Of a DNA stretch of 64,000 nt, positions 5,405 through 43,114 are shown piece after piece. Location: contig JBAZFH010000001.1 of the NCBI GenBank assembly GCA_041653535.1, positions 86,175 to 150,174 on the forward strand, in the 5' to 3' direction. This DNA comes from Patescibacteria group bacterium. Lineage in GTDB: Bacteria > Patescibacteriota > Patescibacteriia > JACRDY01. Each line of letters opens with the position of its first letter. Position 1 is the first letter of the stretch. The translations under genes and the position numbers were made by a program. The notes beneath the pieces are model-generated. The model was not told the DNA's origin and did no database searches. It was given only the letters and a program-made list of their open reading frames with translations.

Positions 5405-5487
5405 ATGGCACGAGGCGAATGGCACGAGGCACGCTGCCGGGGGAGAGTTTAGAAATATTTAATCTAGGTTCTGTTAGGATTTCTGAT

Positions 5488-5877
5488 ATGAATAAGAAGT
5501 TCATGGTCGACCGCGCGCTGCGTGCCTCGCGCCATAAGCTAATCGTCGGTCGTTGGGGGGAGGGAATTGCTTGTGATTTTCTGTTTCGTCGCGGTTATCT
5601 TATGGTCGAGCGCAATTTTCATTCCCGCAACGGCGAGATAGATATTGTTGCGCGTAAAGACGACATTTTTTATTTTATTGAAGTAAAAACCAGAACCACG
5701 GAAAAGTTTGGCCAGCCCGAAGAAGCTTTTGATTGGCGCAAGCAAAAAAAGATAGAAGAAACCATCGGTGACTACATTTTTTTTCGAAGTCTTGATATTG
5801 AAGAATGGCGGGTGGGACTGATCAGTATATTAGTTAGCGGTAAAGATAGAGTAAAAATAAGGTTTTTTTGTAAATAA
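5488..5877 (+). CDS. yraN: YraN/UPF0102-family PD-(D/E)xK endonuclease-like protein
   Basis: 'GEGIACDFLFRRGYLMVERNFHSRNGEIDIVARKDDIFYFIEVKTR' matches the conserved UPF0102 core (G..GE..A, E.D, E.K). Start uncertain: 5392, 5488 or 5506. Confidence 0.65.
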   Translation: MNKKFMVDRALRASRHKLIVGRWGEGIACDFLFRRGYLMVERNFHSRNGEIDIVARKDDIFYFIEVKTRTTEKFGQPEEAFDWRKQKKIEETIGDYIFFRSLDIEEWRVGLISILVSGKDRVKIRFFCK

Positions 5878-7114: not shown

Positions 7115-8413
7115 ATGGCACAATCTCCAATAATGGCGGCGATCCAACAGATCTGCCAGGAAAAAAACCTCAGTCCTGAAGCGGTAATCGAGACTATCGA
7201 AGCGGCTCTCGCCGCTGCTTACCGTAAGGATTTTGGTCAAAAAAATCAGAACATCAAAGTCGAGTACGATCCGGAAAACGGAGAGTCTCGGGTTTTTGAT
7301 GTGAAAAATGTTGTCGAAGACGAGCTGAAAGAAAAAGCCGAAGCCGAAGCAGCCGAACGTCAGGCAGCTATTGATCGTGGCGAAGAGCCGCCAGTACGTG
7401 AAGCAACCCCAGAGTTAGAAGATGGTGAAGAGGGTGAGCTGCGTTACAATCCTAAGCTTCATATTTCTTTTACTGATGCCAAGGAAATAAAACCGGATGC
7501 CAAAGTCGGTGACGAGATTCGTGTTGAGCTGCAAGTGCCGGCTGATTACGGTCGTATGGCGGCTCAGACTGCTAAGCAGGTGATTATCCAGCGTTTGCGT
7601 GAAGCCGAACGCAGCACTATCTTTGATGAGTTTAAAGACAAGCAAGGTCAAGTGCTTGCCGGTACTGTTCAACGCCGTGAAGGTCGCAATGTTTTGATTG
7701 ATATCGGAAAAGTAGTCGGTATTATGCCGCCGGAAGAGCAAGTAGAAAGAGAACGTTACAATATCGGCAATCGTATTAAGGTTTATATTATTTCTGTTGC
7801 TCTTGGTTCTCGTGGTCCGGAAATCATCGTTTCTCGCAAAAGTCCGGAAATCATCCGCGAACTTTTCACCATGGAGATTCCGGAAATCGCTAACGGTTCT
7901 ATTGAGATTAAGGGCATTGCCCGCGAAGCCGGTGGTCGCAGTAAAGTAGCGGTTTATACTGAGGAAGAAAATATTGATCCGATCGGTTCTTGCGTCGGTC
8001 AGCGCGGTGCCAGAGTTCAGACTATTATTTCCGAGCTGTCCGGTGAAAAAATAGATATTATTGAATGGAAAGAAAACCCGTCAGAATATATTGCCAATGC
8101 TTTATTGCCGGCAAAAATTATCAGTATTGAAATAAGAGAAGAAACCAAAGAAGCGGCTGCTACAGTGGATACTGATCAACTGTCACTTGCCATCGGCAAA
8201 CAAGGTCAAAACGTCCGTTTAGCTTCCAGGTTGACTGGCTATCGTATCAGTATTATTGAAGTGAAGGGCGGAGAGAAACGTGAACTGACTGCCGAAGAAA
8301 TCGAGCAAGGTCTGATTGATACTGCCAATAAAAAAGACAGTGAAGCAGGGTTAGTTGCTGCAGAAGGAGAGGTGGAAGTAAAAAGCGAGGATATATCAGA
8401 AACTAAAGAGTAG
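7115..8413 (+). CDS. nusA: Transcription termination/antitermination factor NusA
   Basis: N-terminal NusA domain, S1 'GQVLAGTVQRREGRNVLIDIG', KH1/KH2 ('GSCVGQRGARVQ', 'AIGKQGQNVRLAS'). An acidic insertion follows the N-terminal domain. Confidence 0.9.
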   Translation: MAQSPIMAAIQQICQEKNLSPEAVIETIEAALAAAYRKDFGQKNQNIKVEYDPENGESRVFDVKNVVEDELKEKAEAEAAERQAAIDRGEEPPVREATPELEDGEEGELRYNPKLHISFTDAKEIKPDAKVGDEIRVELQVPADYGRMAAQTAKQVIIQRLREAERSTIFDEFKDKQGQVLAGTVQRREGRNVLIDIGKVVGIMPPEEQVERERYNIGNRIKVYIISVALGSRGPEIIVSRKSPEIIRELFTMEIPEIANGSIEIKGIAREAGGRSKVAVYTEEENIDPIGSCVGQRGARVQTIISELSGEKIDIIEWKENPSEYIANALLPAKIISIEIREETKEAAATVDTDQLSLAIGKQGQNVRLASRLTGYRISIIEVKGGEKRELTAEEIEQGLIDTANKKDSEAGLVAAEGEVEVKSEDISETKE

Positions 8414-8446: not shown

Positions 8447-9244
8447 ATGGTTGCATTATATCAAATGGTTATTTATCAGCCATTATTCAATATCTTAGTC
8501 TGGCTTTACAACGTTATTCCTGGTCATGACGTTGGTATCGCTATTATTTTATTGACTATTGTGGTCAAACTAATTTTGTATCCTTTTTCATTGCAATCGA
8601 TCCGTGCGCAAAAATCAATGCAGGCACTGCAACCCAAGCTCGACGAGCTAAAGAAGAAGTATAAAGACGACAAGGAAAAACTATCGCAAGAAATGATGAA
8701 GCTTTACAAGGACGAAAAGGTAAATCCGTTTTCTTCGTGTTTGCCGGTTTTAGTGCAGCTTCCGATTTTGATTGCGGTTTACCAGGTTTTACGCAATGGA
8801 TTAAGCAACGGCAGTTTTGTCTTGCTTTATCCTTTTATCGCTAATCCCGGGCAAATCGGTCTAATTGCTTTTGGCTTTCTTGATCTTAGTAAACCAAATA
8901 TGGTATTGGCTGTCTTGGCTGGCTTAGCTCAATATTGGCAAACCACCATGGTTCAGGTGCAACAGCCGCCGAAAACTAAAGATGGCAAAGTACTTGCCGG
9001 AGCTAAAGATGAAAACGTTATGGCAACGATGAATAAGCAAATGAAATATACCATGCCATTAATAACGATTATAATCGGTTTTAGTTTACCCGGTGGTTTG
9101 ACTCTTTATTGGTTGATTATGACCTTGCTTACTGTTTTGCAGCAATATGTCGTTTTTCGTAAGGTGAACAAAGGGGAAAAGCCAAAAAATGATGGTAATA
9201 ATCATCCAGACGTAAAAGTGATTGAAGGAGAAATTATTAAATAA
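8447..9244 (+). CDS. yidC: Membrane protein insertase YidC/Oxa1 family (short Gram-positive-type)
   Basis: 'LTIVVKLILYPFSLQSIRAQKSMQALQPKLDELKKKYKDDKEKLSQEMMKLYKDEKVNPFSSCLPVLVQLPILIAVYQVL' carries the YidC signature. Confidence 0.85.
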   Translation: MVALYQMVIYQPLFNILVWLYNVIPGHDVGIAIILLTIVVKLILYPFSLQSIRAQKSMQALQPKLDELKKKYKDDKEKLSQEMMKLYKDEKVNPFSSCLPVLVQLPILIAVYQVLRNGLSNGSFVLLYPFIANPGQIGLIAFGFLDLSKPNMVLAVLAGLAQYWQTTMVQVQQPPKTKDGKVLAGAKDENVMATMNKQMKYTMPLITIIIGFSLPGGLTLYWLIMTLLTVLQQYVVFRKVNKGEKPKNDGNNHPDVKVIEGEIIK

Positions 9245-21848: not shown

Positions 21849-22100
21849 TGTTTTGAAATTTAGAAACTAGAAGTTAAGAAATTGGAAATTAGAATATCTT
21901 TGACCGCGCCATTCGTAGCGCAGCTCCAATTAACATTACAAATTTTTGATAATTATCGCCCTTCTTCGCCAAGGCTTCGAAGGGCATTCTTCGCTGTGCG
22001 AATAATGGTGGAGATGGCGGGAGTTGTGTCCCTACGGGACATCCCCCGAAGGGGGAAACCCGCATATCCGAAACCGTTTTTTTGGATCAACGTTTATCTA

Positions 22101-22498
22101 TGGTGGAGATGGCGGGAGTTGAACCCGCGTCCAGAAAGACAAAGCCATTTAATCTACAAGTTTAGTTTGTTTAATTTTTTTTCGGCGAACAAGGTAATAA
22201 ACAAACAAAATCCTTTTTCGCTATAGCCTTTAGTCTCGTAGCTTTCCTAGGCAAAAAAACTACCAGCCCGAAATATAACACCGGTGGAGCCCCTATCGGG
22301 TGTCAGGGAACCGATGGACTGGTGCTTTAAGCAGCAGTCAAAGCAAAAGCCGGAACGGCAAAAGCTTGCGCTAATGCGTTTTTGGCCTTGTTAAATAAGT
22401 TTGCACTTATAATTTTCTAGAATGGTTTAATGAGACAATCTAGAATGCTCAACCTGCTAAATAACGTTGTAACCTTCCTGTCGAAGCCCAGCATCCCC
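22101..22498 (-). ncRNA. ssrA: tmRNA (SsrA)
   Basis: Minus strand 5' 'GGGGATGCTGGGCTTCGAC' and 3' 'GCGGGTTCAACTCCCGCCATCTCCACCA' form the tRNA-like domain. The internal tag ORF ends '...AFALTAA-TAA'. Adjacent to smpB. GC-rich relative to the genome. Confidence 0.8.
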
Positions 22499-30921: not shown

Positions 30922-32643
30922 ATGAAGAAAGTTCTTTTGTTAACCGCGGTTGTTTTAGCCGTGCTTTTTCTCGGCTGTGCCGGGGAGGATACGGTGTTGG
31001 ATAAAGAGTCGGCATCGTCGATCGATGATGACGATGATAACAACGATAACGATAACAACGATAACGACACTGTCGACGATGATGTCGACGATGATGATGA
31101 CGATGACGATGACAACGACGACAATAATGACAATGATGATAACAACGATAACGATAACAACGATAACGACACTGTCGACGATGATGACGACGATGACAAT
31201 GACGATGACAATGACGATGACAACGACGACAACGATAACAACGACGATGATAACGACGACACTTCGCCGCCGTCGGTTTGCACGGTAACGCTAGCCGGAA
31301 CCGAATTGTTCATTTACTACCCGGAACAACCGATTGATTTGGTTGACTTCGGGTGTGATGACCCGGGTACGGCGTGTGACCTGCTGACGGTCACACTGAA
31401 TCCTCAGGGCGGGCATATTTATCATGTCGTGGTTCCGGCAGGGAATTACGACTCGGCGAGACCGAAGACGCTGGCAGGCGGGTATTTTAATCTGTCTGCT
31501 TGCGAATATTATGGTGAAGTCTCGTGGACGCCGACCTGCGACGGAGGTATTGTTGATTTCACACCCGGCGTTTTCAAGGGTGTGGATGTAGATTTCTCCT
31601 ACATGCCAACGATCGGTATGGTGGGAGAAGTAATGAATTTTTTCGACCAGTCGTGCACTTCGCCGCTGGTTGATCCGGTGGATTTGCAGTATTATTGGTC
31701 CTTCGGCGACGGTACTACTCCGGGGTTTGGGGCGGACGTCAATCATACTTACGCCACCGCCGGCAGCTATGTCGTACATCTGGATATCTACGATGGCGTG
31801 TATACGTATGCGACCCAAAAAGTCGTTTATGTTATCGCGCCGGTCCAGTGTTATAACAACTCCGACTGTGACGATGGCGTTTTCTGCAACGGGCAGGAAG
31901 TATGTGTTGGCGGTAGTTGTGTCGCTGGCGACACCCCCTGTGGTGACGACAGTGTTTTCTGCAACGGCGTTGAAGGATGTAACGAAAACACGGATAACTG
32001 CACTTCCAGCGGTTATCCGTGTGGTGACGACGGTGTTTTCTGCAACGGGCAGGAAACATGTAATGAGTCGGTAAACAGTTGCGCGCACACCGGCAATCCT
32101 TGCGATACTAACGGTGGCGAGGTTTGCGACGAGAATCTCGCCCAGTGTGTGATCCCGCCGCCGACTTGCGACGACAACTCCGACTGTGACGATGGCGTTT
32201 TCTGCAACGGGCAGGAAACATGCGTTGGCGGGACATGTTTTGAATCCGCCATTGATCCTTGCGATGACGGTCATTTCTGCACGATTGATTCGTGCGACGA
32301 AGCGACTGACATGTGCGGGGGTGCGGGGTCTCCCTGTTTGCCGGAGGAGACCTGCGACGAGTCGACTGACGAGTGTGTAGCGCCGGTCTGCACTGTTGAG
32401 GTTGACACTATGCAATGCATGGCTTGGCGGCGATATGAAGGCGAACGCTTCGTGATCTACGATCAGGGAGCGATCGATGAACATTTGTGGAAGATGGTGA
32501 GCGGTCCGTTTAACGGCTGCTCGTTTTTCCCGGAGGGCGACGATGATGCCGCTCGACTAACGTGGTGTAATTCGCATTACGCCATGGTCGACTGCGCTAT
32601 CGCCGAGCGCCATGACGGCTTTTGGAACTGCAGTTTCAAATAG
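30922..32643 (+). CDS. Lipoprotein with D/N-rich spacer, PKD-like domain and cysteine-rich '[15 protein letters not shown]' repeats, encoded in the high-GC island
   Basis: Lipobox 'LFLGC'. PKD-like '[12 protein letters not shown]...[19 protein letters not shown]'. At least 6 Cys repeats resembling Myxococcus-type cysteine-rich repeats. Confidence 0.6.
31021..31263 (+). repeat. In-frame imperfect tandem repeat (period 102 bp, ~2.4 copies) encoding Asp/Asn low-complexity
   Basis: 'aacgataacgataacaacgataacgacactgtcgacgatgat' occurs at 31042 and again at 31144. Confidence 0.75.
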
Positions 32644-37559: not shown

Positions 37560-39365
37560 ATGAAAGGCGTAATTGATTTAACTTTCGGACCATTTCGTTT
37601 GATTTTTCGCCGCCTAGGCAAACGCTATCAGGTTCGCTATAAATTTAACAAAAAACATCTTGTCGCCGATACGGTATTGTTTTTAGGGGTGGTGTTTTTG
37701 ATCGTATTTAATATTTATATCACCGTAGTTTTTACAAAATGGGCGGTGTCTCTGGGTGTAGATATGAATATTAAAGTAGAAAAACAAGTATTAAATGGTG
37801 CTCAGACTAAAATAGTAATAAATTATGATAATTCCAGGAAAAATGGTCGTTTAGTCGACGCTAAGTTGTCTTTGCAGTTACCTGAGGATTTTGTCCTTAA
37901 AGAAACTTCTAACGGTCAGTATGATGTTGTCAGTAGTAGTTTGTTAATTGGCGAGATCAAACCCGGAACCAGCGAAAAATTGGAATTATTAGGTGAAAAT
38001 TGGGGAAATTACGATACGACAGAAAAAATTTACGCTCGCCTTGATTATACCCAAGAGCGAACGATAAATGATCGGGTGGTTAGTTGGCGGGAAGAAAATA
38101 TTACTTCTGCTATCTATAAAATTTCTGGTTCAATGCTTGATTGCGGATTTATCTTGCCGCCGTTGGTTACTAACGGTAGTGACTTTGATTTTCAGCTTAA
38201 TTGTCAAAATAACTATGACGCGGATATTAATAAGGCAAGACTGTTGATTGTCCCTGGTGACGGTCTAGCGGTGAAGGCGACCAAACCACAGCTATCCAAA
38301 AATTTTTGGACACTAGGTGATTTGACAACCGGAGTCAAAGAAGATTTGTCTGGTAGTGCCAGTTTTAATATGCCAGCCGAGGCTGTAGAAGGAAATATTG
38401 GTTTTCAGCTCTACGGCTTTCATAATGGCAAGGCTTTGCTTTTGGATAAAAAAGAATCAACGGTTAAGATATTTCATCCTCATTTTTCTCTTGCCGTCCA
38501 GGTAAATGGAGCAGATAAATATTGGCCGATACCGGGCGAAGAAGTGAACTATCTACTCAATTACCAAAACCAAGAAGACTTTGATATTGCTGACGCTAAA
38601 GTTAAACTCGATTTTTCTCCCGCCGTATTTGATGTCAGCACTTGGAAATCTGGTCAAAAAGCAGTTTGGGACGGCAGTAATGCAACTTTAGACATCGGCG
38701 CTCTTACTATGGGACAAAAAGGGGAGATTGCCTTTAGTGTTAAAACAAAAAAACAAAATAGCGTCAGAGATTTGGAAATAACTCCTCGTGTCAGCTACGC
38801 GGTAGATTACCAGGGTCAACATCTGACCGTTGATGCAGAACTGCCGGCGATCAAACAGTCGTTTAGCGCTAACTTAGAGCTGGAATCTTTTGCTCGCTAT
38901 TACACGGTAGAGGGGGAGCAGCTAGGCATCGGTCCGTTGCCACCGGTTGTGGGCATTCCTACTCAGTATCGGATGTTTTGGCAAATTAGCAATGCTTTTA
39001 ATGCCGTTAAAGACGTTTGGGTTAGCTGTGTGTTACCAAATAATGTTATTTGGACGGGGCAAGAAAGTGTTAATACTGGATCGGGGCTGGAATTTAATTC
39101 TAAGACTCGAGAAATGATTTGGCGTTTACCTCGACTCGAGTCGTCCGTGGGAATAAAAAGTATCCCGGCGATAGCCAACTTTTCTTTGGAGCTAACGCCG
39201 TTAGTTAGTCAGTTAGGGCAGAATGCTATTATTGCTAAAGATGTGAAAATTAGCGCTACCGACGAGGTAAGTGGCAGAAAACTTGAGTTATTTTTGGGCG
39301 ATTTATTAACTAATCTACCAGGAGATAAAAAAGCTTCTAATCGTGGGAGAATAGTTAATTTTTAG
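37560..39365 (+). CDS. Hypothetical membrane-anchored extracellular protein (beta-sandwich repeats, DUF11-like)
   Basis: 601 aa with one N-terminal TM and repeated beta-rich ~100-aa segments. Confidence 0.4.
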   Translation: MKGVIDLTFGPFRLIFRRLGKRYQVRYKFNKKHLVADTVLFLGVVFLIVFNIYITVVFTKWAVSLGVDMNIKVEKQVLNGAQTKIVINYDNSRKNGRLVDAKLSLQLPEDFVLKETSNGQYDVVSSSLLIGEIKPGTSEKLELLGENWGNYDTTEKIYARLDYTQERTINDRVVSWREENITSAIYKISGSMLDCGFILPPLVTNGSDFDFQLNCQNNYDADINKARLLIVPGDGLAVKATKPQLSKNFWTLGDLTTGVKEDLSGSASFNMPAEAVEGNIGFQLYGFHNGKALLLDKKESTVKIFHPHFSLAVQVNGADKYWPIPGEEVNYLLNYQNQEDFDIADAKVKLDFSPAVFDVSTWKSGQKAVWDGSNATLDIGALTMGQKGEIAFSVKTKKQNSVRDLEITPRVSYAVDYQGQHLTVDAELPAIKQSFSANLELESFARYYTVEGEQLGIGPLPPVVGIPTQYRMFWQISNAFNAVKDVWVSCVLPNNVIWTGQESVNTGSGLEFNSKTREMIWRLPRLESSVGIKSIPAIANFSLELTPLVSQLGQNAIIAKDVKISATDEVSGRKLELFLGDLLTNLPGDKKASNRGRIVNF

Positions 39366-39442
39366 TAAAAATGTTTAAAATTAGATAAAAAACATGGGTG
39401 GAAATACCCTTGTTTTTTTAGTCTTTTTGTGTTGACAAAAAT
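39303..39442 (+). repeat. Left copy of a ~140-bp direct repeat (3' end of the upstream CDS plus the downstream promoter region)
   Basis: ~98% identical to 41411-41552: one substitution (a/g) and one T-run indel. Confidence 0.9.
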
Positions 39443-39517
39443 ATTATTATAGTATATTTTTTAGTCAGTACAACAGAAAAATTTTTCTGTCTTTGACAAC
39501 AAATAAAGGAGACATCT

Positions 39518-40819
39518 ATGAATACGACGGCAAGAGTTGCGTTAGTGTATCCAGAGGTTTATGACCTTGCTCACTTCAAGGAAAAAAGAAAAGAATTTCC
39601 TCCTTTTGGGGTATTGTATCTCGCTTCTTTTCTTGAAAAAAATAATATTGAAGTTAAGATATTTAAGACCGTTAGCGGGGATGAGCAATATGATTTTAGG
39701 GGTTATGATGTGGTTGGTTTTAGTATACCAGCTTCAGCGACATACAATCTTCTTAAAAATGTAAGATTTTTAGCTCGCTATTCAAAAGATGTTGTAATCG
39801 CTGTGGGCGGTGTTCACCCTAGTTTTTATCCCCAAAAAACCTTTATTGATTTTAAAGCCGATGTGGTAGCGATCGGATGTGGTGAAAGAACTATCGTTGA
39901 TATAGTTAATGCTTGCCATGATAAAGATTTTTCTCGAGTAAGTGGCGTCTGCTGTTTTAGTGGTCAATCTTTGGTCATAAACCAGGCAGGTCCTCTAGAT
40001 AAAGATATTGATTGGCTTGCTTTTCCTGCCAGACATTTGCTTGACGAGTCAGACTTTATTATGAATAATCGGTTGGCAGGCACCGATATTCGTATGACAC
40101 ATATAATGTTAAGTAGGGGTTGCCCCTTCTCCTGTCGCTTTTGTGCTGTAATGCAAAAGAAGTTACAATATCGTTCTGGTGTTAATGCAAAAACCGAACT
40201 CGAGTACTTAAAGCGTGAATATCAGATCAATGGGTTTGCAATTGTTGATGACAATTTTGTGGTCGACAAAAGGGCAGTTAATGTCTTGTGTAAGGAGATA
40301 GGTGGTCTCGGGCTAGCCTGGTCTGCGCTCTCTCGAGTTGATACAGTTGACTACGAATTGCTTGAGGTCATGCAAGATGCTGGATGTCTCGAACTTAAAT
40401 TTGGAATAGAGTCCGGGAGTGAGCGAATGCTCCAAGCCATGGGTAAGAACATCTCTTGTAATCAAATACGTAGAGCCATCACCCTGTCTTTTTCCCTGGG
40501 TATCAAGGTAAAAGCTTTCCTAGTACATGGTTTTCCCGGGGAAGACATGTCGAGTACCCAAGAGACTATTTCGCTCCTTAAAGACATCGGTGGTATGATT
40601 GACAGGGTTTCTCTTTTTCGTTTCACCCCTCTTCCAGGATCGTATGTTTTCAATAATGCAAGCAAGTTCGGCTTGTTAATTCCTGAAAATATTGAAGACT
40701 GGAGTAGATTCCACATCTATCATAATAATTATCATTGGTGGGGGAGCGCAGAAGACTTTCATCAGGTTGAAGTTTCTTATAGCGAACTCGAAAAATTTAT
40801 TACTGACAATTGGCAGTAA
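39518..40819 (+). CDS. B12-binding domain/radical SAM protein (class B radical SAM-like)
   Basis: N-terminal B12-binding-like 'FPPFGVLYLASFL'. Radical SAM 'CPFSCRFCAV' (CxxxCxxC). Confidence 0.8.
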   Translation: MNTTARVALVYPEVYDLAHFKEKRKEFPPFGVLYLASFLEKNNIEVKIFKTVSGDEQYDFRGYDVVGFSIPASATYNLLKNVRFLARYSKDVVIAVGGVHPSFYPQKTFIDFKADVVAIGCGERTIVDIVNACHDKDFSRVSGVCCFSGQSLVINQAGPLDKDIDWLAFPARHLLDESDFIMNNRLAGTDIRMTHIMLSRGCPFSCRFCAVMQKKLQYRSGVNAKTELEYLKREYQINGFAIVDDNFVVDKRAVNVLCKEIGGLGLAWSALSRVDTVDYELLEVMQDAGCLELKFGIESGSERMLQAMGKNISCNQIRRAITLSFSLGIKVKAFLVHGFPGEDMSSTQETISLLKDIGGMIDRVSLFRFTPLPGSYVFNNASKFGLLIPENIEDWSRFHIYHNNYHWWGSAEDFHQVEVSYSELEKFITDNWQ

Positions 40820-40837
40820 TAAATTTAAAATTCAAAA

Positions 40838-40867
40838 GTTGTGTCTTGAAAACACGACTTTTTTTTA
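40838..40867. terminator. Bidirectional terminator between convergent genes
   Basis: 'gttgtgtcttgaaaacacgac' hairpin followed by a T9 run. Confidence 0.45.
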
Positions 40868-40869
40868 GT

Positions 40870-41271
40870 TTATCGCTCAAAAGGTTTTATCCAACCGAGA
40901 TCTTGCCATAAAGCTAATTCATCAGAATAGGGCATTTCATTTTTCGAAATATGGTTTATGTAACATACTTCTATTTTTTTATTTAAAGCTCTGTTTAGTC
41001 CTAAAGCGAACGCCATTTCTGCAAATACGCCAGCTCCTATATAGCCAGCAATACCCTTTTTTTCAAAGTTTAGGGCTAGTACGATATCTGCCTTAGTTAT
41101 GGCATTGTAATGCTCGGAGAATTCTTTGTTGTAGCTATTTAGAAAATCGTTTTTAATTTTTGTAGGATATTTTAACACTTCAAAACCGTGTTTTTCTAAT
41201 CTATCTTTCCATTCCAGTATTTTTTCTTCAAAAGATGCGCTGGAACAAATTACGACTTTTTTCTTTTTCAT
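40870..41271 (-). CDS. Nucleoside 2-deoxyribosyltransferase-like (SLOG/NDT fold) small protein
   Basis: Rossmann-like 'KVVICSSASF...ADIVLAL...GAGVFAEMAFALGLNRAL' resembles NDT-like families. Low confidence. Confidence 0.35.
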   Translation of the reverse strand: MKKKKVVICSSASFEEKILEWKDRLEKHGFEVLKYPTKIKNDFLNSYNKEFSEHYNAITKADIVLALNFEKKGIAGYIGAGVFAEMAFALGLNRALNKKIEVCYINHISKNEMPYSDELALWQDLGWIKPFER

Positions 41272-41410
41272 ATTAATTTATTATTAAAGACTAAATATTT
41301 GTCACTTTTTATTATAATAACAACAACTCTTTTTTAAATCAAAGGGCTTTTAGGTTTTTGGCAAAAATACATATAATGATTAGTATTAATTGAGCGGGTT
41401 CCCTAGGGGC

Positions 41411-41552
41411 TTATTAACTAATCTGCCAGGAGATAAAAAAGCTTCTAATCGTGGGAGAATAGTTAATTTTTAGTAAAAATGTTTAAAATTAGATAAAAAA
41501 CATGGGTGGAAATACCCTTGTTTTTTTTAGTCTTTTTGTGTTGACAAAAATT
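41411..41552 (+). repeat. Right copy of the ~140-bp direct repeat; carries the promoter (TTGACA-N17-TAAGAT) of the downstream GT4 gene
   Basis: Duplicates the last 21 codons plus stop of the 37560-39365 gene and 77 bp of downstream sequence. Confidence 0.9.
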
Positions 41553-41598
41553 GTTATATATGTTAAGATGATTAATCGCATTGATAAAATTTTAATAT

Positions 41599-42753
41599 AT
41601 GAAAATAGCGTTTATCGGTCAAAAGGGTATTCCTACCAAATTTGGTGGAATCGAAAGGCATGTAGAAGAATTAGCTGTCCGTCTTGTTAAGGCTGGTCAG
41701 AAGGTTTTTGTTTATTGCCGCCCTTGGTATGCGCCAGTAGATAAAAAGTCCTTTCGTGGAATTAAATTAATTAGCCTGCCGTCTATCAGAACTAAACATT
41801 TGGATGCGATTTCTCATACTTTTATCGCCACTTTACACGCATTGTTTTCCGATTATGACATTATTCATTATCACGGAGTCGGTCCGGCTTTACTTTCTTT
41901 TATTCCGCGAATTTTTAAACCTCAAGTCAGGGTGGTGGCGACTTTTCATTGTATTGATCGCAAACATCAGAAATGGGGATTATTTGCCCGTACCTTTTTG
42001 AAGCTGGGAGAGCGTGCGGCTTGTTTGTTCGCTCATCAAACCATTACGGTTTCTAAAACATTACAATATTATTGTTCTCAGATCTATAATACCGATACTG
42101 TCTATATTCCCAACGGCGTTGGTCGCAAAAACGTTAATTGCGGCAGTGACCTGATCGCTAAAAAATTTGGCTTGCAGGAAAACGGTTATCTTTTAGTGGT
42201 TTCTCGTTTGGTCCGGCACAAAGGCATTCATTATTTGATTAATGCTTTTCATCGTCTAAAAACCGATAAAAAGCTGGTTATTGTCGGTGATTCTGCTTTT
42301 ACCGATGATTATGTTCAAGAGTTGCACGACTTGTCTTATGGCAGTAAAAACATTATTTTTACCGGATATCAAAACGGTAAAGTCTTAGATCAACTTTTTG
42401 CTAATGCTTACGCTTTTATTTTACCTTCTGAATCAGAGGGTTTGCCAATAGTTATCCTGGAAGCCATGGCTTACGGCAAGGCGGTGTTGGCTTCTGATAT
42501 TACTGAAAATCTGGAAGTAGTCCGCGGTCATGGTTTTAGTTTTCGTAATAAACAAATTGACGATTTAGTAAGCAGGCTAAAACATTTATTGGATAACCAA
42601 AAAAACGTGGAAGCTATTGGTAGAGAAAGTCGGGATTTTGTTATGCAAAATTATAACTGGGACGACATAGTAAAAAAGACCATAGTTCTTTATCACCAAA
42701 CTTTAAAAAGCGGAGCTAAAAAAGGCTTAGCGCCGTCTCAAGTGCAGGCTTAA
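41599..42753 (+). CDS. Glycosyltransferase family 4
   Basis: 'GIPTKFGGIERHVEEL' and C-terminal 'SEGLPIVILEAMAYGKAVLASD'. Confidence 0.75.
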   Translation: MKIAFIGQKGIPTKFGGIERHVEELAVRLVKAGQKVFVYCRPWYAPVDKKSFRGIKLISLPSIRTKHLDAISHTFIATLHALFSDYDIIHYHGVGPALLSFIPRIFKPQVRVVATFHCIDRKHQKWGLFARTFLKLGERAACLFAHQTITVSKTLQYYCSQIYNTDTVYIPNGVGRKNVNCGSDLIAKKFGLQENGYLLVVSRLVRHKGIHYLINAFHRLKTDKKLVIVGDSAFTDDYVQELHDLSYGSKNIIFTGYQNGKVLDQLFANAYAFILPSESEGLPIVILEAMAYGKAVLASDITENLEVVRGHGFSFRNKQIDDLVSRLKHLLDNQKNVEAIGRESRDFVMQNYNWDDIVKKTIVLYHQTLKSGAKKGLAPSQVQA

Positions 42754-42826: not shown

Positions 42827-43114
42827 CTATTTTTTATCTGTGTGTGGATAGCTTTTAGGGTTAGGGGAATACAAGGGGGAGGAAATTTTCCATTTTTCTA
42901 CAAACTGTCCGAGACCTTCTTTTGAAAGTTTATTTTTTACCGTTGGTCTCTTTTGTGACCACTTAAGAATATTTTCAAAGTTAAGGCGGTAGCGACCGCG
43001 AACAACTACGTACGTTATCTCTTGATTTTTTATAGCTCGGCGAATAGTTTTTTGATCAATGCCAAAAAGGCGAGCGGCTTCAGAAACAGATAGACGAATA
43101 GGAGAGTTGTTCAT
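42827..43114 (-). CDS. Excisionase/MerR-family-like helix-turn-helix DNA-binding protein
   Basis: 'LSVSEAARLFGIDQKTIRRAIKNQEI' matches the excisionase-family HTH pattern. Confidence 0.5.
   Translation of the reverse strand: MNNSPIRLSVSEAARLFGIDQKTIRRAIKNQEITYVVVRGRYRLNFENILKWSQKRPTVKNKLSKEGLGQFVEKWKISSPLYSPNPKSYPHTDKK

Follow-up and report, generated by a model that had tools for sequence, protein, structure and literature searches.

A 64-kb stretch of DNA from an uncultured member of the Patescibacteria (CPR), called here the window, contains a glycan locus in which the gene of a 601-aa protein is separated from a GT4 glycosyltransferase gene by two convergent genes, and these two genes lie between direct repeats. 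The features of the locus are the following:

37560-39365, plus strand: 601-aa host gene, whose product has an N-terminal membrane anchor and a weak DUF11/CLIPPER-like Pfam match
39303-39442, plus strand: left repeat copy, R1 (140 nt), with gene tail, stop, hairpin, T7 and -35 box
39396-39409, plus strand: terminator-like hairpin in R1, GGGTGGAAATACCC (fold -15.3 kcal/mol, z = -3.4)
39432-39442, plus strand: -35 element TTGACAAAAAT in R1
39432-39460, plus strand: hybrid radical SAM promoter from the promoter scan, with -35 TTGACA in the repeat and -10 TATTTT/TATATT in the insert
39473-39490, plus strand: 5'-UTR hairpin of the radical SAM gene, ACAGAAA-AATT-TTTCTGT (computed fold)
39518-40819, plus strand: radical SAM gene with a B12-binding domain, 433 aa (Pfam PF02310 and PF04055)
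40834-40862, both strands: hairpin terminator common to the convergent genes (-10.9 kcal/mol on plus, -8.9 kcal/mol on minus)
40870-41271, minus strand: 133-aa NDT-like gene, convergent with the radical SAM gene
41272-41410, minus strand: right-hand non-coding end of the insert, with the 133-aa gene promoter and about 70 nt ending ...CCCTAGGGGC at the right junction
41311-41342, minus strand: predicted promoter of the 133-aa gene (scan for promoter-like sites)
41411-41551, plus strand: right repeat copy, R2 (141 nt), with non-coding tail, hairpin, T8 and -35 box
41504-41517, plus strand: hairpin in R2
41541-41551, plus strand: -35 element TTGACAAAAAT in R2
41541-41569, plus strand: native GT4 promoter, with -35 TTGACA within the repeat and the extended -10 TGTTAAGAT beyond it
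41599-42753, plus strand: GT4 glycosyltransferase gene (Pfam), ancestral right neighbour of the 601-aa gene

R1 and R2 are 98.6% identical over 141 columns (blastn, E = 6e-71), and blastn found no third copy in the 64-kb window. They differ by a single substitution, A at 39317 versus G at 41425, which is synonymous (CTA to CTG) in the reading frame of the tail, and by a single indel, T7 (39413-39419) versus T8 (41521-41528); an identical core of 95 nt separates the two differences. The repeat unit and insert together measure 2108 nt and the insert alone 1968 nt. This is the only long dispersed repeat within the window, where the other recurring exact 20-mers are confined to tandem-type repeats in a gene at 31-32 kb and to a duplicate of the tmRNA end, and 89 control tests elsewhere in the window detected no other repeat pair flanking a segment of about 2 kb. 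R1 comprises the final 20 sense codons and the stop (39363-39365) of the 601-aa ORF, the hairpin with its T-run, and the TTGACA box. The tail in R1 aligns with the C-termini of seven homologues and is the authentic gene end, while the copy in R2 is non-coding and is preceded by an in-frame TAG at 41405-41407. The original prediction had described the repeats in this way, with one substitution, one T-run indel, a genuine left tail and a non-coding right one, and the alignments bear it out; its right copy starts correctly at 41411 but was drawn one base too far, to 41552 instead of 41551, and the 21 codons it counted before the stop are 20.

The insert encodes a radical SAM protein with the cluster motif CPFSCRFC, as read from the sequence, which stays under the cut-off of all NCBIfam equivalogs and has 2081 homologues, the nearest being 80-83% identical. 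The -35 box is 86 nt from its ATG, compared with 87-89 nt in the loci L004, L005, L006, L090 and L092. The hairpin in its 5' UTR, which has no match in Rfam, is kept with two-sided changes, GCAGG/CCTGC in L005, L090 and L092 and GCAGGA/TCCTGC in L006. The 133-aa protein matches no Pfam family; its own family comprises 113 clusters, almost all of them at 51-77% identity. Its AlphaFold model (pLDDT 95.6) finds 4mcj, 2a0k and 8os9 as best Foldseek matches, and the predicted fold is that of nucleoside 2-deoxyribosyltransferase/DNPH1-like proteins. Pfam matches, predicted structure and hairpin folding together confirm the anticipated convergent radical SAM/NDT-like pair with a shared terminator at 40834-40862, a region that includes a 16-nt stretch identical in L004. 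The right end of the insert, more than about 45 nt from the 133-aa ATG, has no similarity to the other loci of the module. The radical SAM gene is ordinary for the window in GC (z = 0.2) and GC3 (z = -0.2) and the 133-aa gene leans just slightly towards AT (z = -1.5), so base composition does not independently point to a foreign origin.

The pair is found in at least nine unrelated contexts, at 63-83% identity for the radical SAM protein and 64-77% for the 133-aa protein, and it is convergent in every locus that is at least 63% identical and long enough to show the arrangement. Its neighbours there are tRNA, translation-factor, NUDIX, efflux and other genes. The pair is a portable unit and, by these gene contexts, is not functionally tied to the glycan locus.

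Relatives that lack the insert reveal the ancestral arrangement. Homologues of the 601-aa protein are 33-46% identical, end in the same C-terminal motif and are syntenic with GHL15 and GT4, and GT4 orthologues (68-72% identical) follow directly 3' of them. The order GT4a-GHL15-601aa-GT4 is contiguous in at least seven loci (L087, L007, L008, L009, L012, L027 and L036), in which the spacer before GT4 measures 140-480 nt and contains neither the radical SAM nor the 133-aa gene; these genomes are of other species, as the 68-72% identity of GT4 indicates. The closest relative, L087, whose 601-aa protein is 46% identical, has an empty site, and no conspecific strain with an empty site was found. 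The proposed check, whether related genomes carry the 601-aa gene directly followed by GT4, gave at least seven insert-free loci, and the pair is, as had been suggested, a lineage-specific insertion in a conserved glycan locus.

The spacers of L087, L007 and L008 share with the repeat TGTTTAAAwTTAGA, a GGG..CCC hairpin and a T-run, and their GT4 promoters present the same TTGACAAA, 17 nt and TGnTAAGrT. Comparison at the sequence level demonstrates that the repeat is a duplicated host target and not sequence borne by the element, because R2 and the DNA downstream of it form the native GT4 promoter, while R1 lends its -35 box to the incoming gene. R2 does supply the -35 of GT4, as had been proposed, only as part of that gene's own promoter; the lent -35 is that of R1.

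The left junction lies within the 11-nt TTGACAAAAAT, which is common to the pair's own promoter and to the GT4 promoter. The module promoter in L004 opens with the identical TTGACAAAAAT, and those of L006 and L090 open with TTGACAAAA; beyond the junction, R1 resembles module promoters and R2 resembles GT4 promoters. A -35 hexamer is expected where any promoter-bearing unit starts, so the TTGACA part of the match is unsurprising, and only the additional AAAAT and the preserved spacing add weight. Among the other copies of the pair, the second-best case (L163) has a flanking repeat that stops about 28 nt short of the -35 box, and a -35 junction can therefore not be taken as the rule. At the right junction, GGGGC|TTATTAAC, no microhomology is evident from the recipient side. 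The independent Logan assembly of SRR18595300 supports the insert junctions. Its cassette contig (L002) spans 39413-41455, running 30 nt into the left repeat and 45 nt into the right gene-tail copy, and both of its ends coincide exactly with the last 31-mers that distinguish one repeat copy from the other; the contig carrying GT4 begins at 41522.

The locus contains a two-gene insertion with a host-derived repeat, empty sites in relatives and microhomology at one junction. Its origin was probably a one-off illegitimate insertion, guided by microhomology and accompanied by target duplication, with no recombinase of its own; this reading is favoured because the left junction falls in the 11 nt common to both promoters. 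The ancestor would have had the 601-aa gene, a short spacer with the terminator hairpin and the GT4 promoter, and then GT4. A DNA of 1968 nt, most likely from another Patescibacteria genome, would have entered this spacer, bringing the coding region of the radical SAM gene together with that gene's -10 box, 5' UTR and ribosome-binding site, the shared terminator, and the NDT-fold gene with its own promoter. On the left it would have joined at the -35 region common to its promoter and that of GT4, and on the right the host sequence restarts 140 nt upstream of the left joining point, so that the last 20 codons, the terminator and the -35 box are present twice. Such a product could result from a switch of the replication template to the donor and back, or from staggered joining to two sister chromosomes. 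To our knowledge, no experiment in any organism has demonstrated how long target duplications originate. The outcome leaves the neighbours unbroken: the 601-aa gene retains its end and terminator, the native promoter of GT4 is complete, and the radical SAM gene gains a correctly spaced hybrid promoter. The repeats, with 95 nt identical, are a substrate for RecA-type deletion, which would give the empty site and a 2.1-kb circle, and the insert may therefore be unstable.

In a model put forward in the original prediction, such a circle, carrying the pair and one 140-nt host segment, integrates by a single reversible homologous crossover of the Campbell type. This would produce exactly the observed geometry, a 2108-nt unit between near-identical direct repeats, and the identical core has sufficient length for homologous recombination. 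In SRR18595300 the de Bruijn-graph contigs fit the integrated copy and a circle with an empty site equally. However, the repeat is host sequence whose position and architecture are conserved in cassette-free relatives, and it is absent from the pair's other loci; a circle bearing it could come only from an already duplicated locus, which leaves the origin unexplained. Genes for replication or recombination are missing from the cassette, and the in-register microhomology at the -35 box is left without a cause. We consider this explanation unlikely overall, although such a crossover may have been the last step. Still less probable is a site-specific event catalysed by a recombinase from another part of the genome or from a helper element; R1 and R2 would then represent attL and attR, with the 601-aa gene offering its 3' end as a target in the way that tRNA genes do for genomic islands. 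Duplication of a gene 3' end is the classic mark of integrase-driven islands, and copies of the pair are found beside tRNA genes or tRNA-like remnants in L004, L005, L090, L093, L096 and L170, yet none of the scanned genes from 25 to 52 kb has an integrase or transposase domain, and copies of the module in other genomes come without the repeat. Direct repeats flank other copies of the pair more commonly than expected (4 of 10, versus 2 of 310 controls). These repeats are of differing sequence and range from 25 to 141 nt, a diversity that does not suit a single att site. An HTH_17/excisionase-family gene is located 1.3 kb from the insert, and the original prediction had pointed to it. A link to the cassette is not supported, since this gene is part of a block, HTH-ECF sigma-DUF5667-1285-aa, that adjoins GT4 in the insert-free relatives L013, L015 and L035, and also in L008, L027 and L031.

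It is very unlikely that the arrangement is an assembly artefact in which a shared or collapsed repeat caused a cassette from another molecule or organism to be built into the contig. The source is a metagenome-assembled genome, the window is assembled sequence and not reads, and the Logan assembly breaks at the repeat; nevertheless, the stretches by which its cassette contig reaches the repeat on both sides are host-specific, so that the cassette is physically joined to host sequence in the reads. The two differing positions indicate distinct loci and not one collapsed copy, the 95-nt core does not reach the length of ordinary reads or large assembler k-mers and should hence be resolvable, and the promoter geometry at the rejoined site, like the intact genes on either side, has a biological look. 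Just as improbable is an ancient arrangement in which the pair was originally at the site and was lost from all sampled relatives by recombination between repeats homogenised by gene conversion. Deletion between direct repeats would leave precisely the empty site of the relatives, and gene conversion is able to keep repeats similar. Under this history the pair would have been lost precisely and independently seven times or more, or lost once early on, against the tree that the identities imply, in which the closest relative is empty. It also has to accommodate a non-coding tail with only one change in 63 nt, though the protein and its nearest homologue share just 46% identity, and the presence of the pair in unrelated contexts elsewhere.

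HFIR, alt-EJ and FoSTeS/MMBIR are mechanisms of microhomology-mediated illegitimate recombination. The 11 nt common to donor-type and recipient sequence at the left junction resemble their products, and a flanking duplication is expected when a replicating end switches out and back. No homologous anchor is visible here; HFIR usually yields deletions, and duplications of 140 nt are atypical of it. Microhomology is also enriched at the junctions of horizontal transfers (PMC11317153).

The closest described class is the insertion with long target duplication (Nobusato et al. 2000, Gene 259:99; Furuta, Abe & Kobayashi 2010, NAR 38:2428, PMC2853133), which has long (>30 bp) and variable target duplications, no mobility genes and repeats that often lie across gene ends (PMC2853133). 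The present insertion agrees in its small unit, its direct repeats above 30 bp across a gene stop, the single copy at the related empty site, and the absence of integrase, transposase or IS. All described members are restriction-modification genes, and DNA breakage by the restriction enzyme was proposed as the driver (PMC2853133), whereas the cargo here is a radical SAM enzyme and an NDT-fold protein, in which no nuclease or methyltransferase domain was detected. It differs further in its host phylum, in empty sites that belong to other species and not to strains of the same species, and in a junction placed in the -35 microhomology of a promoter. The insertion type is already known; what sets this case apart within the class is its other kind of cargo and a phylum new to it.

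Genomic islands and prophages share with this locus repeats that copy a gene 3' end and leave the target gene intact, and possible circular excision. They differ in having an integrase and true excisionase, where the present element is a 2-kb cargo without mobility function whose repeat is not carried by the element elsewhere and changes in length and sequence between insertions. Integron gene cassettes are also small promoter-proximal units in a conserved locus, and in L160 a repeated boundary element lies between the pair and an adjacent APH gene. However, no IntI integrase is found among the scanned genes, the repeats are plain local copies of the target and, unlike typical integron cassettes, the unit brings its own promoters and terminator.

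The insert between the 601-aa gene and the GT4 gene of the glycan locus is bracketed by two direct repeat copies of 140 and 141 nt, which align by blastn with 98.6% identity over 141 columns (E = 6e-71). The gapped alignment joins a block of 117 nt (39303-39419 and 41411-41527, 99%) to an adjoining block of 39 nt. As the original prediction described, the copies differ by one substitution, A/G at 39317/41425, and one T-run indel, T7/T8 at 39413-19/41521-28; the 95 nt between these two differences are identical. Blastn finds no third copy within the 64-kb window, these 64 kb hold no other long dispersed repeat, and none of 89 control placements at other positions of the window shows a segment of ~1.8 kb between two repeats. 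The features are the following.

Features of the insert and its borders (window positions)
37560-39365, the 601-aa gene
39303-39442, left copy, which holds the final 20 codons of the 601-aa ORF with its stop, the hairpin GGGTGGAAATACCC, a T-run and TTGACAAAAAT
39518-40819, gene with B12-binding and Radical_SAM domains and the motif CPFSCRFC, between the copies
40834-40862, hairpin able to terminate both strands, between the copies
40870-41271, minus strand, 133-aa gene, between the copies
41411-41551, right copy
41599-42753, the GT4 gene

The coding tail in the left copy was predicted as 21 codons, one more than is present, and in the right copy an in-frame TAG just upstream of the tail leaves it non-coding. 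The tRNA and tmRNA genes of the window all lie elsewhere, Rfam gives nothing significant in 39-42 kb, and no terminal inverted repeats are found at the insert ends.

Relatives of the locus were collected with the GT4 protein as query, which gave 80 loci from species-representative genomes, each compared by tblastn to every window protein of the region; a scan of genome contigs with the 601-aa protein found no relative, and an exact look-up of that protein gave no match. The gene order GT4a-GHL15-601aa-GT4 is conserved among relatives. The expected arrangement without insert, a 601-aa homologue directly before GT4, is present in seven loci, six of them with gaps of ~140-480 nt (L007, from Falkowbacteria, L008, L009, L012, L027 and L036) and one, L087, with a gap of 249 nt on the contig that carries the closest 601-aa homologue (46% identical). 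None of the seven has a tblastn match to the radical SAM or the 133-aa protein. These empty sites belong to other species, with a spacer ~77% identical at best, and hold a single tail, a single hairpin and a single promoter.

Seven homologues have C-termini that align with the tail LLTNLPGDKKASNRGRIVNF, with T, L and D invariant. The spacers of L087, L007 and L008 have, in identical order, TGTTTAAAwTTAGA, a GGG..CCC hairpin, a T-run, TTGACAAA, 17 nt, TGnTAAGrT and GT4, and therefore the right copy and the bases that follow it (TGTTAAGAT) are the native GT4 promoter. The left copy and the gene before it are the native gene end, and the duplicated sequence is the target. In L007 (9520-10000) the spacer is swollen to ~480 nt by several palindromic elements of the CCAGGGTTTTAAAACCCTGG type, so this spacer takes up small repeats in other lineages too. 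Elsewhere in the window, a PKD-domain gene at 30922-32643 has internal near-exact repeats and Asp/Asn-rich coding repeats, with 20-mers that recur at 31033/31135, 31856/2174 and 31879/32035/32197; its product is probably a variable surface protein, part of the same envelope locus.

The window comes from a Patescibacteria metagenome-assembled genome (locus tags WC310_). In the Logan assembly of SRR18595300 the cassette is a separate contig of 2043 nt, which equals window positions 39413-41455, and the contig on the GT4 side begins at 41522. The contig ends are exactly the last 31-mers that still hold a base unique to one copy; therefore the reads contain the repeat and both inner junctions, with the cassette in physical continuity with a copy of the tail of the host gene; the k = 31 graph fits an integrated cassette and an empty site plus a circle equally.

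The position of the left junction is given by a comparison of promoters. The pair has a promoter of its own, conserved in relatives, and after it comes a 5'-UTR hairpin. The promoter begins with TTGACAAAAAT in L004, TTGACAAAATA in L006 and TTGACAAAAGT in L090, and its -35 box is separated from the start codon by 87-89 nt in relatives and by 86 nt in the window. In relatives, TTGACAAA stands at the start of the GT4 promoters. The identity of the repeat copies stops exactly after TTGACAAAAAT, and beyond this point the left copy resembles module promoters and the right copy resembles GT4 promoters. The left junction therefore lies in register within 8-11 nt common to both promoters. At the right junction …CCCTAGGGGC is joined to TTATTAAC….

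The favoured reading is a one-off, recombinase-free, microhomology-guided insertion that duplicated 140 nt of the target. It could have proceeded by switching template to donor DNA and back again, or by joining in a staggered way to sister chromosomes. With the junction inside the -35 box, GT4 would lose its promoter unless the region were duplicated, and therefore selection may explain why the product that bears the duplication is the one that survives. Given the 95-nt identical core, deletion is predicted to happen occasionally; it would free a circle of 2.1 kb. Campbell integration of a circle by a single crossover, as the original prediction had it, is a possible last step and is not needed; such a circle requires an earlier duplicated locus as its source. 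As to an integrase-driven integrative element, with the repeats as attL and attR, the genes from 25 to 52 kb include no integrase, transposase or relaxase by Pfam and NCBIfam, and no tyrosine or serine recombinase is found. The HTH_17/excise-domain gene (42827-43114, 95 aa) is part of a block of HTH, ECF sigma, DUF5667 and 1285-aa genes, and this block lies next to or near GT4 in relatives without the insert (L013, L015, L035, L008, L027 and L031). The proposed excisionase link thus falls, and the HTH_17 gene is no part of the insertion event. An att core should also go with its element, but none of the other loci with the pair has a sequence that matches the window repeat. A DNA transposon or IS is expected to have a transposase, terminal inverted repeats and a short target duplication of fixed length; here there is no transposase and no inverted repeat at the ends, and the duplication is 140 nt long.

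Insertion with long target duplication was identified by genome comparison for restriction-modification systems in Helicobacter, Haemophilus, Neisseria, Campylobacter and others (Furuta et al. 2010; PMC2853133). In that class the repeats are longer than 30 bp, variable in length and often span gene ends, and mobility genes are absent; homologues of restriction and modification genes in the cargo were a criterion of the screen, and the mechanism is unproven, with DNA breakage by the restriction enzyme suspected by the authors (PMC2853133). In gut bacteria, microhomology is enriched at the junctions of horizontal transfers (PMC11317153). The insertion in the window has the structural features of this known and poorly understood class: repeats of 140/141 nt, above the >30-bp criterion and neither a tRNA nor a known att sequence, an insert of 1968 nt, below 20 kb, that neither contains nor adjoins an integrase, transposase or IS, and empty sites with one repeat copy between the same genes, here in other species. 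Unlike the published cases, its cargo is a B12-domain radical SAM gene and an NDT-fold gene, with no restriction-modification genes, and its host is from a different phylum. The class thereby comes to include cargo other than restriction-modification genes and reaches the candidate phyla radiation, and a non-restriction cargo weakens the idea that a nuclease of the inserted genes themselves is needed. The locus is a clean, empty-site-checked example of the gain of a ready-to-run unit, with its neighbours undamaged, by a genome that has hardly any classical mobile elements, and the in-register microhomology between two promoters at one junction is a concrete clue to the mechanism.

The tightly conserved, uncharacterised enzyme pair is also flagged as a portable unit. 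At loci with at least ~63% radical SAM identity and enough sequence, the radical SAM gene is always convergent with a small-gene homologue of 130-136 aa, in contexts such as the following.

Neighbours of the pair at other loci
L004: tRNA-Leu/Cys, RbfA, IF-2
L005: acetyltransferase, NUDIX, tRNA-Asp/Met
L006: NUDIX, GrpB
L160: efflux pump, APH, L31
L163: PHP, 2909-aa protein
L166: NUDIX, HD, methyltransferase
L170: NUDIX, YfiH-like, RNR

The neighbours are different at every locus. The main inference of the original prediction, an acquired, potentially mobile accessory pair, is borne out. Composition was discarded as a sign of foreign origin, the cassette being no outlier. The frequent NUDIX, HD, kinase and RNR neighbours would suggest nucleotide chemistry, and the recurrence of nucleotide-metabolism genes hints at a nucleotide-directed function. 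In one clade (L005, L006 and L093) a NUDIX gene, 89-91% identical, comes right after the 133-aa gene as a third travelling gene; L166 and L170 have several NUDIX, HD, APH, RNR and YfiH-like genes near the pair. For the cargo, PADLOC gives only a weak match to a radical SAM domain (PDC-M51A, 4e-11) and PHROGs gives none; a defence or phage assignment was dropped, as the two databases offered this generic match and generic HTH matches.

The radical SAM protein has the Pfam domains PF02310 (9e-12) and PF04055 (1e-15), and its CPFSCRFC, read at 40121-40144, fits the CxxxCxxC motif. With an N-terminal B12-binding domain, the core and the motif, it can be placed by sequence in class B, the class with a B12-binding domain. 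There are 2081 homologues, the nearest with 80-83% identity. A specific reaction was not assigned, since the protein approaches none of the NCBIfam equivalog cut-offs and its nearest solved relative by sequence, AprD4, matches at E = 4e-15 only. The 5' UTR of the gene (39462-39517) is conserved in L004, L005, L006, L090 and L092 and has a hairpin at 39473-39490, which is followed by an ACAAyAA...AAAGGAG stretch. Its pairing is kept despite changes on both sides, as ACAGAAA/TTTCTGT in the window and GCAGG/CCTGC and GCAGGA/TCCTGC in relatives. The hairpin has no Rfam match and may be a small regulatory RNA element.

The 133-aa family comprises 113 clusters, all but one at least 51% identical. 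The protein matches no Pfam family at E <= 0.01 and has no meaningful NCBIfam match. Its AlphaFold model (pLDDT 95.6) gives Foldseek matches to 4mcj, 2a0k, 8os9, 8pqt and 7o62, with E of 1e-4 to 2e-3 and TM of 0.46-0.62, and the predicted fold best resembles nucleoside 2-deoxyribosyltransferases and DNPH1. In that family the catalytic Glu lies in a G-x-G...E-x-G/A motif, and E85 of the 133-aa protein is invariant within GAGVFAEMAFA in 57 sequences. Distant homologues occur without the radical SAM gene in two IMG/VR contigs classed as viral, L176 (6001-6390, 37% identity) and L177 (749-1120, 25%); they were set aside as uninformative.

Other copies of the pair are also flanked by direct repeats, again of local sequence. 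In L160 the repeat is of 35 nt (32/35 identical), its right copy overlaps the 3' end of the APH gene and beyond APH there is a third, partial copy; in L163 it is of 25 nt at 96% plus 13 nt, and in L090 of 30 nt beside a tRNA-like remnant. No flanking repeat is found at L004, L005, L006, L166, L170 or L173 at E <= 1e-2. With 900-nt flanks and E <= 1.1e-5, a threshold picked after seeing the data and applied to a small sample, flanking repeats occur in 4/10 distinct contexts of the pair, the window with its 141 nt included, against 2/310 segments of 1.78 kb taken at random from 31 Patescibacteria loci (Fisher p = 7e-6) and 0/116 placements elsewhere in the same loci. This excess is a lead and not a result.

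The repeat of L163 ends ~28 nt short of the -35 box, and a promoter junction is therefore shown for the window alone; an extension of this repeat to the -35 box was dropped, because the similarity is weak past the first ~38 nt. In L170 (4830-4915) and L173 (1640-1671) the modules are 96.7% identical and the left flanks unrelated, with the break 4-6 nt upstream of the -35 box of the module (TTTACA) and, in L170, exactly at the end of a long-arm tRNA gene. A wider pattern beyond the window insertion is possible. Because of the flanking-repeat excess, the varied contexts, the strain-level breakpoint between L170 and L173 at the module promoter and the L160 element that also flanks APH, all of them hints, the pair might be a selfish, recombinase-free mobile unit of Patescibacteria, perhaps a nucleotide-directed defence or addiction module, amplified or popped out through its repeats. 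As proposed for restriction-modification systems, it would enter genomes repeatedly by long, variable target duplication. This broader reading is considered improbable.

Some smaller observations concern the borders of the pair. The L160 element is present in three copies of 35-58 nt (5486-5543, 7812-7846 and 8795-8843) with the palindrome CAAAACCGCGGTTTTG, which enclose first the radical SAM/133-aa pair and next the APH kinase gene beside it, like the boundaries of a small cassette array. A conserved tRNA-like remnant of ~140 nt lies upstream of the module promoter in one clade (L005 9776-9920, L090 5168-5319 and L092) and holds T-loop-like GGTTCAAATCC/GGATTCGAACC pieces; ARAGORN and Rfam do not recognise it in L005 or L090. 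L005 has a trailer element of ~35 nt by tRNA-Asp, and in L090 a copy of this element stands on either side of the module. The use of tRNA fragments as att sites was rejected, as the pieces in L005 and L090 are suggestive and nothing is consistent. An apparent strain polymorphism beside the module, L163 against L164 and L160 against L162, was also discarded; the difference is in the gene calls alone, the DNA being identical. Within the window, the tmRNA gene (22101-22498, minus strand) has an exact 22-nt duplicate of its 3' end 95 nt beyond the gene (22005-22026 / 22100-22121), which resembles the remnant attachment site of an element formerly integrated in ssrA, or a further small target duplication.
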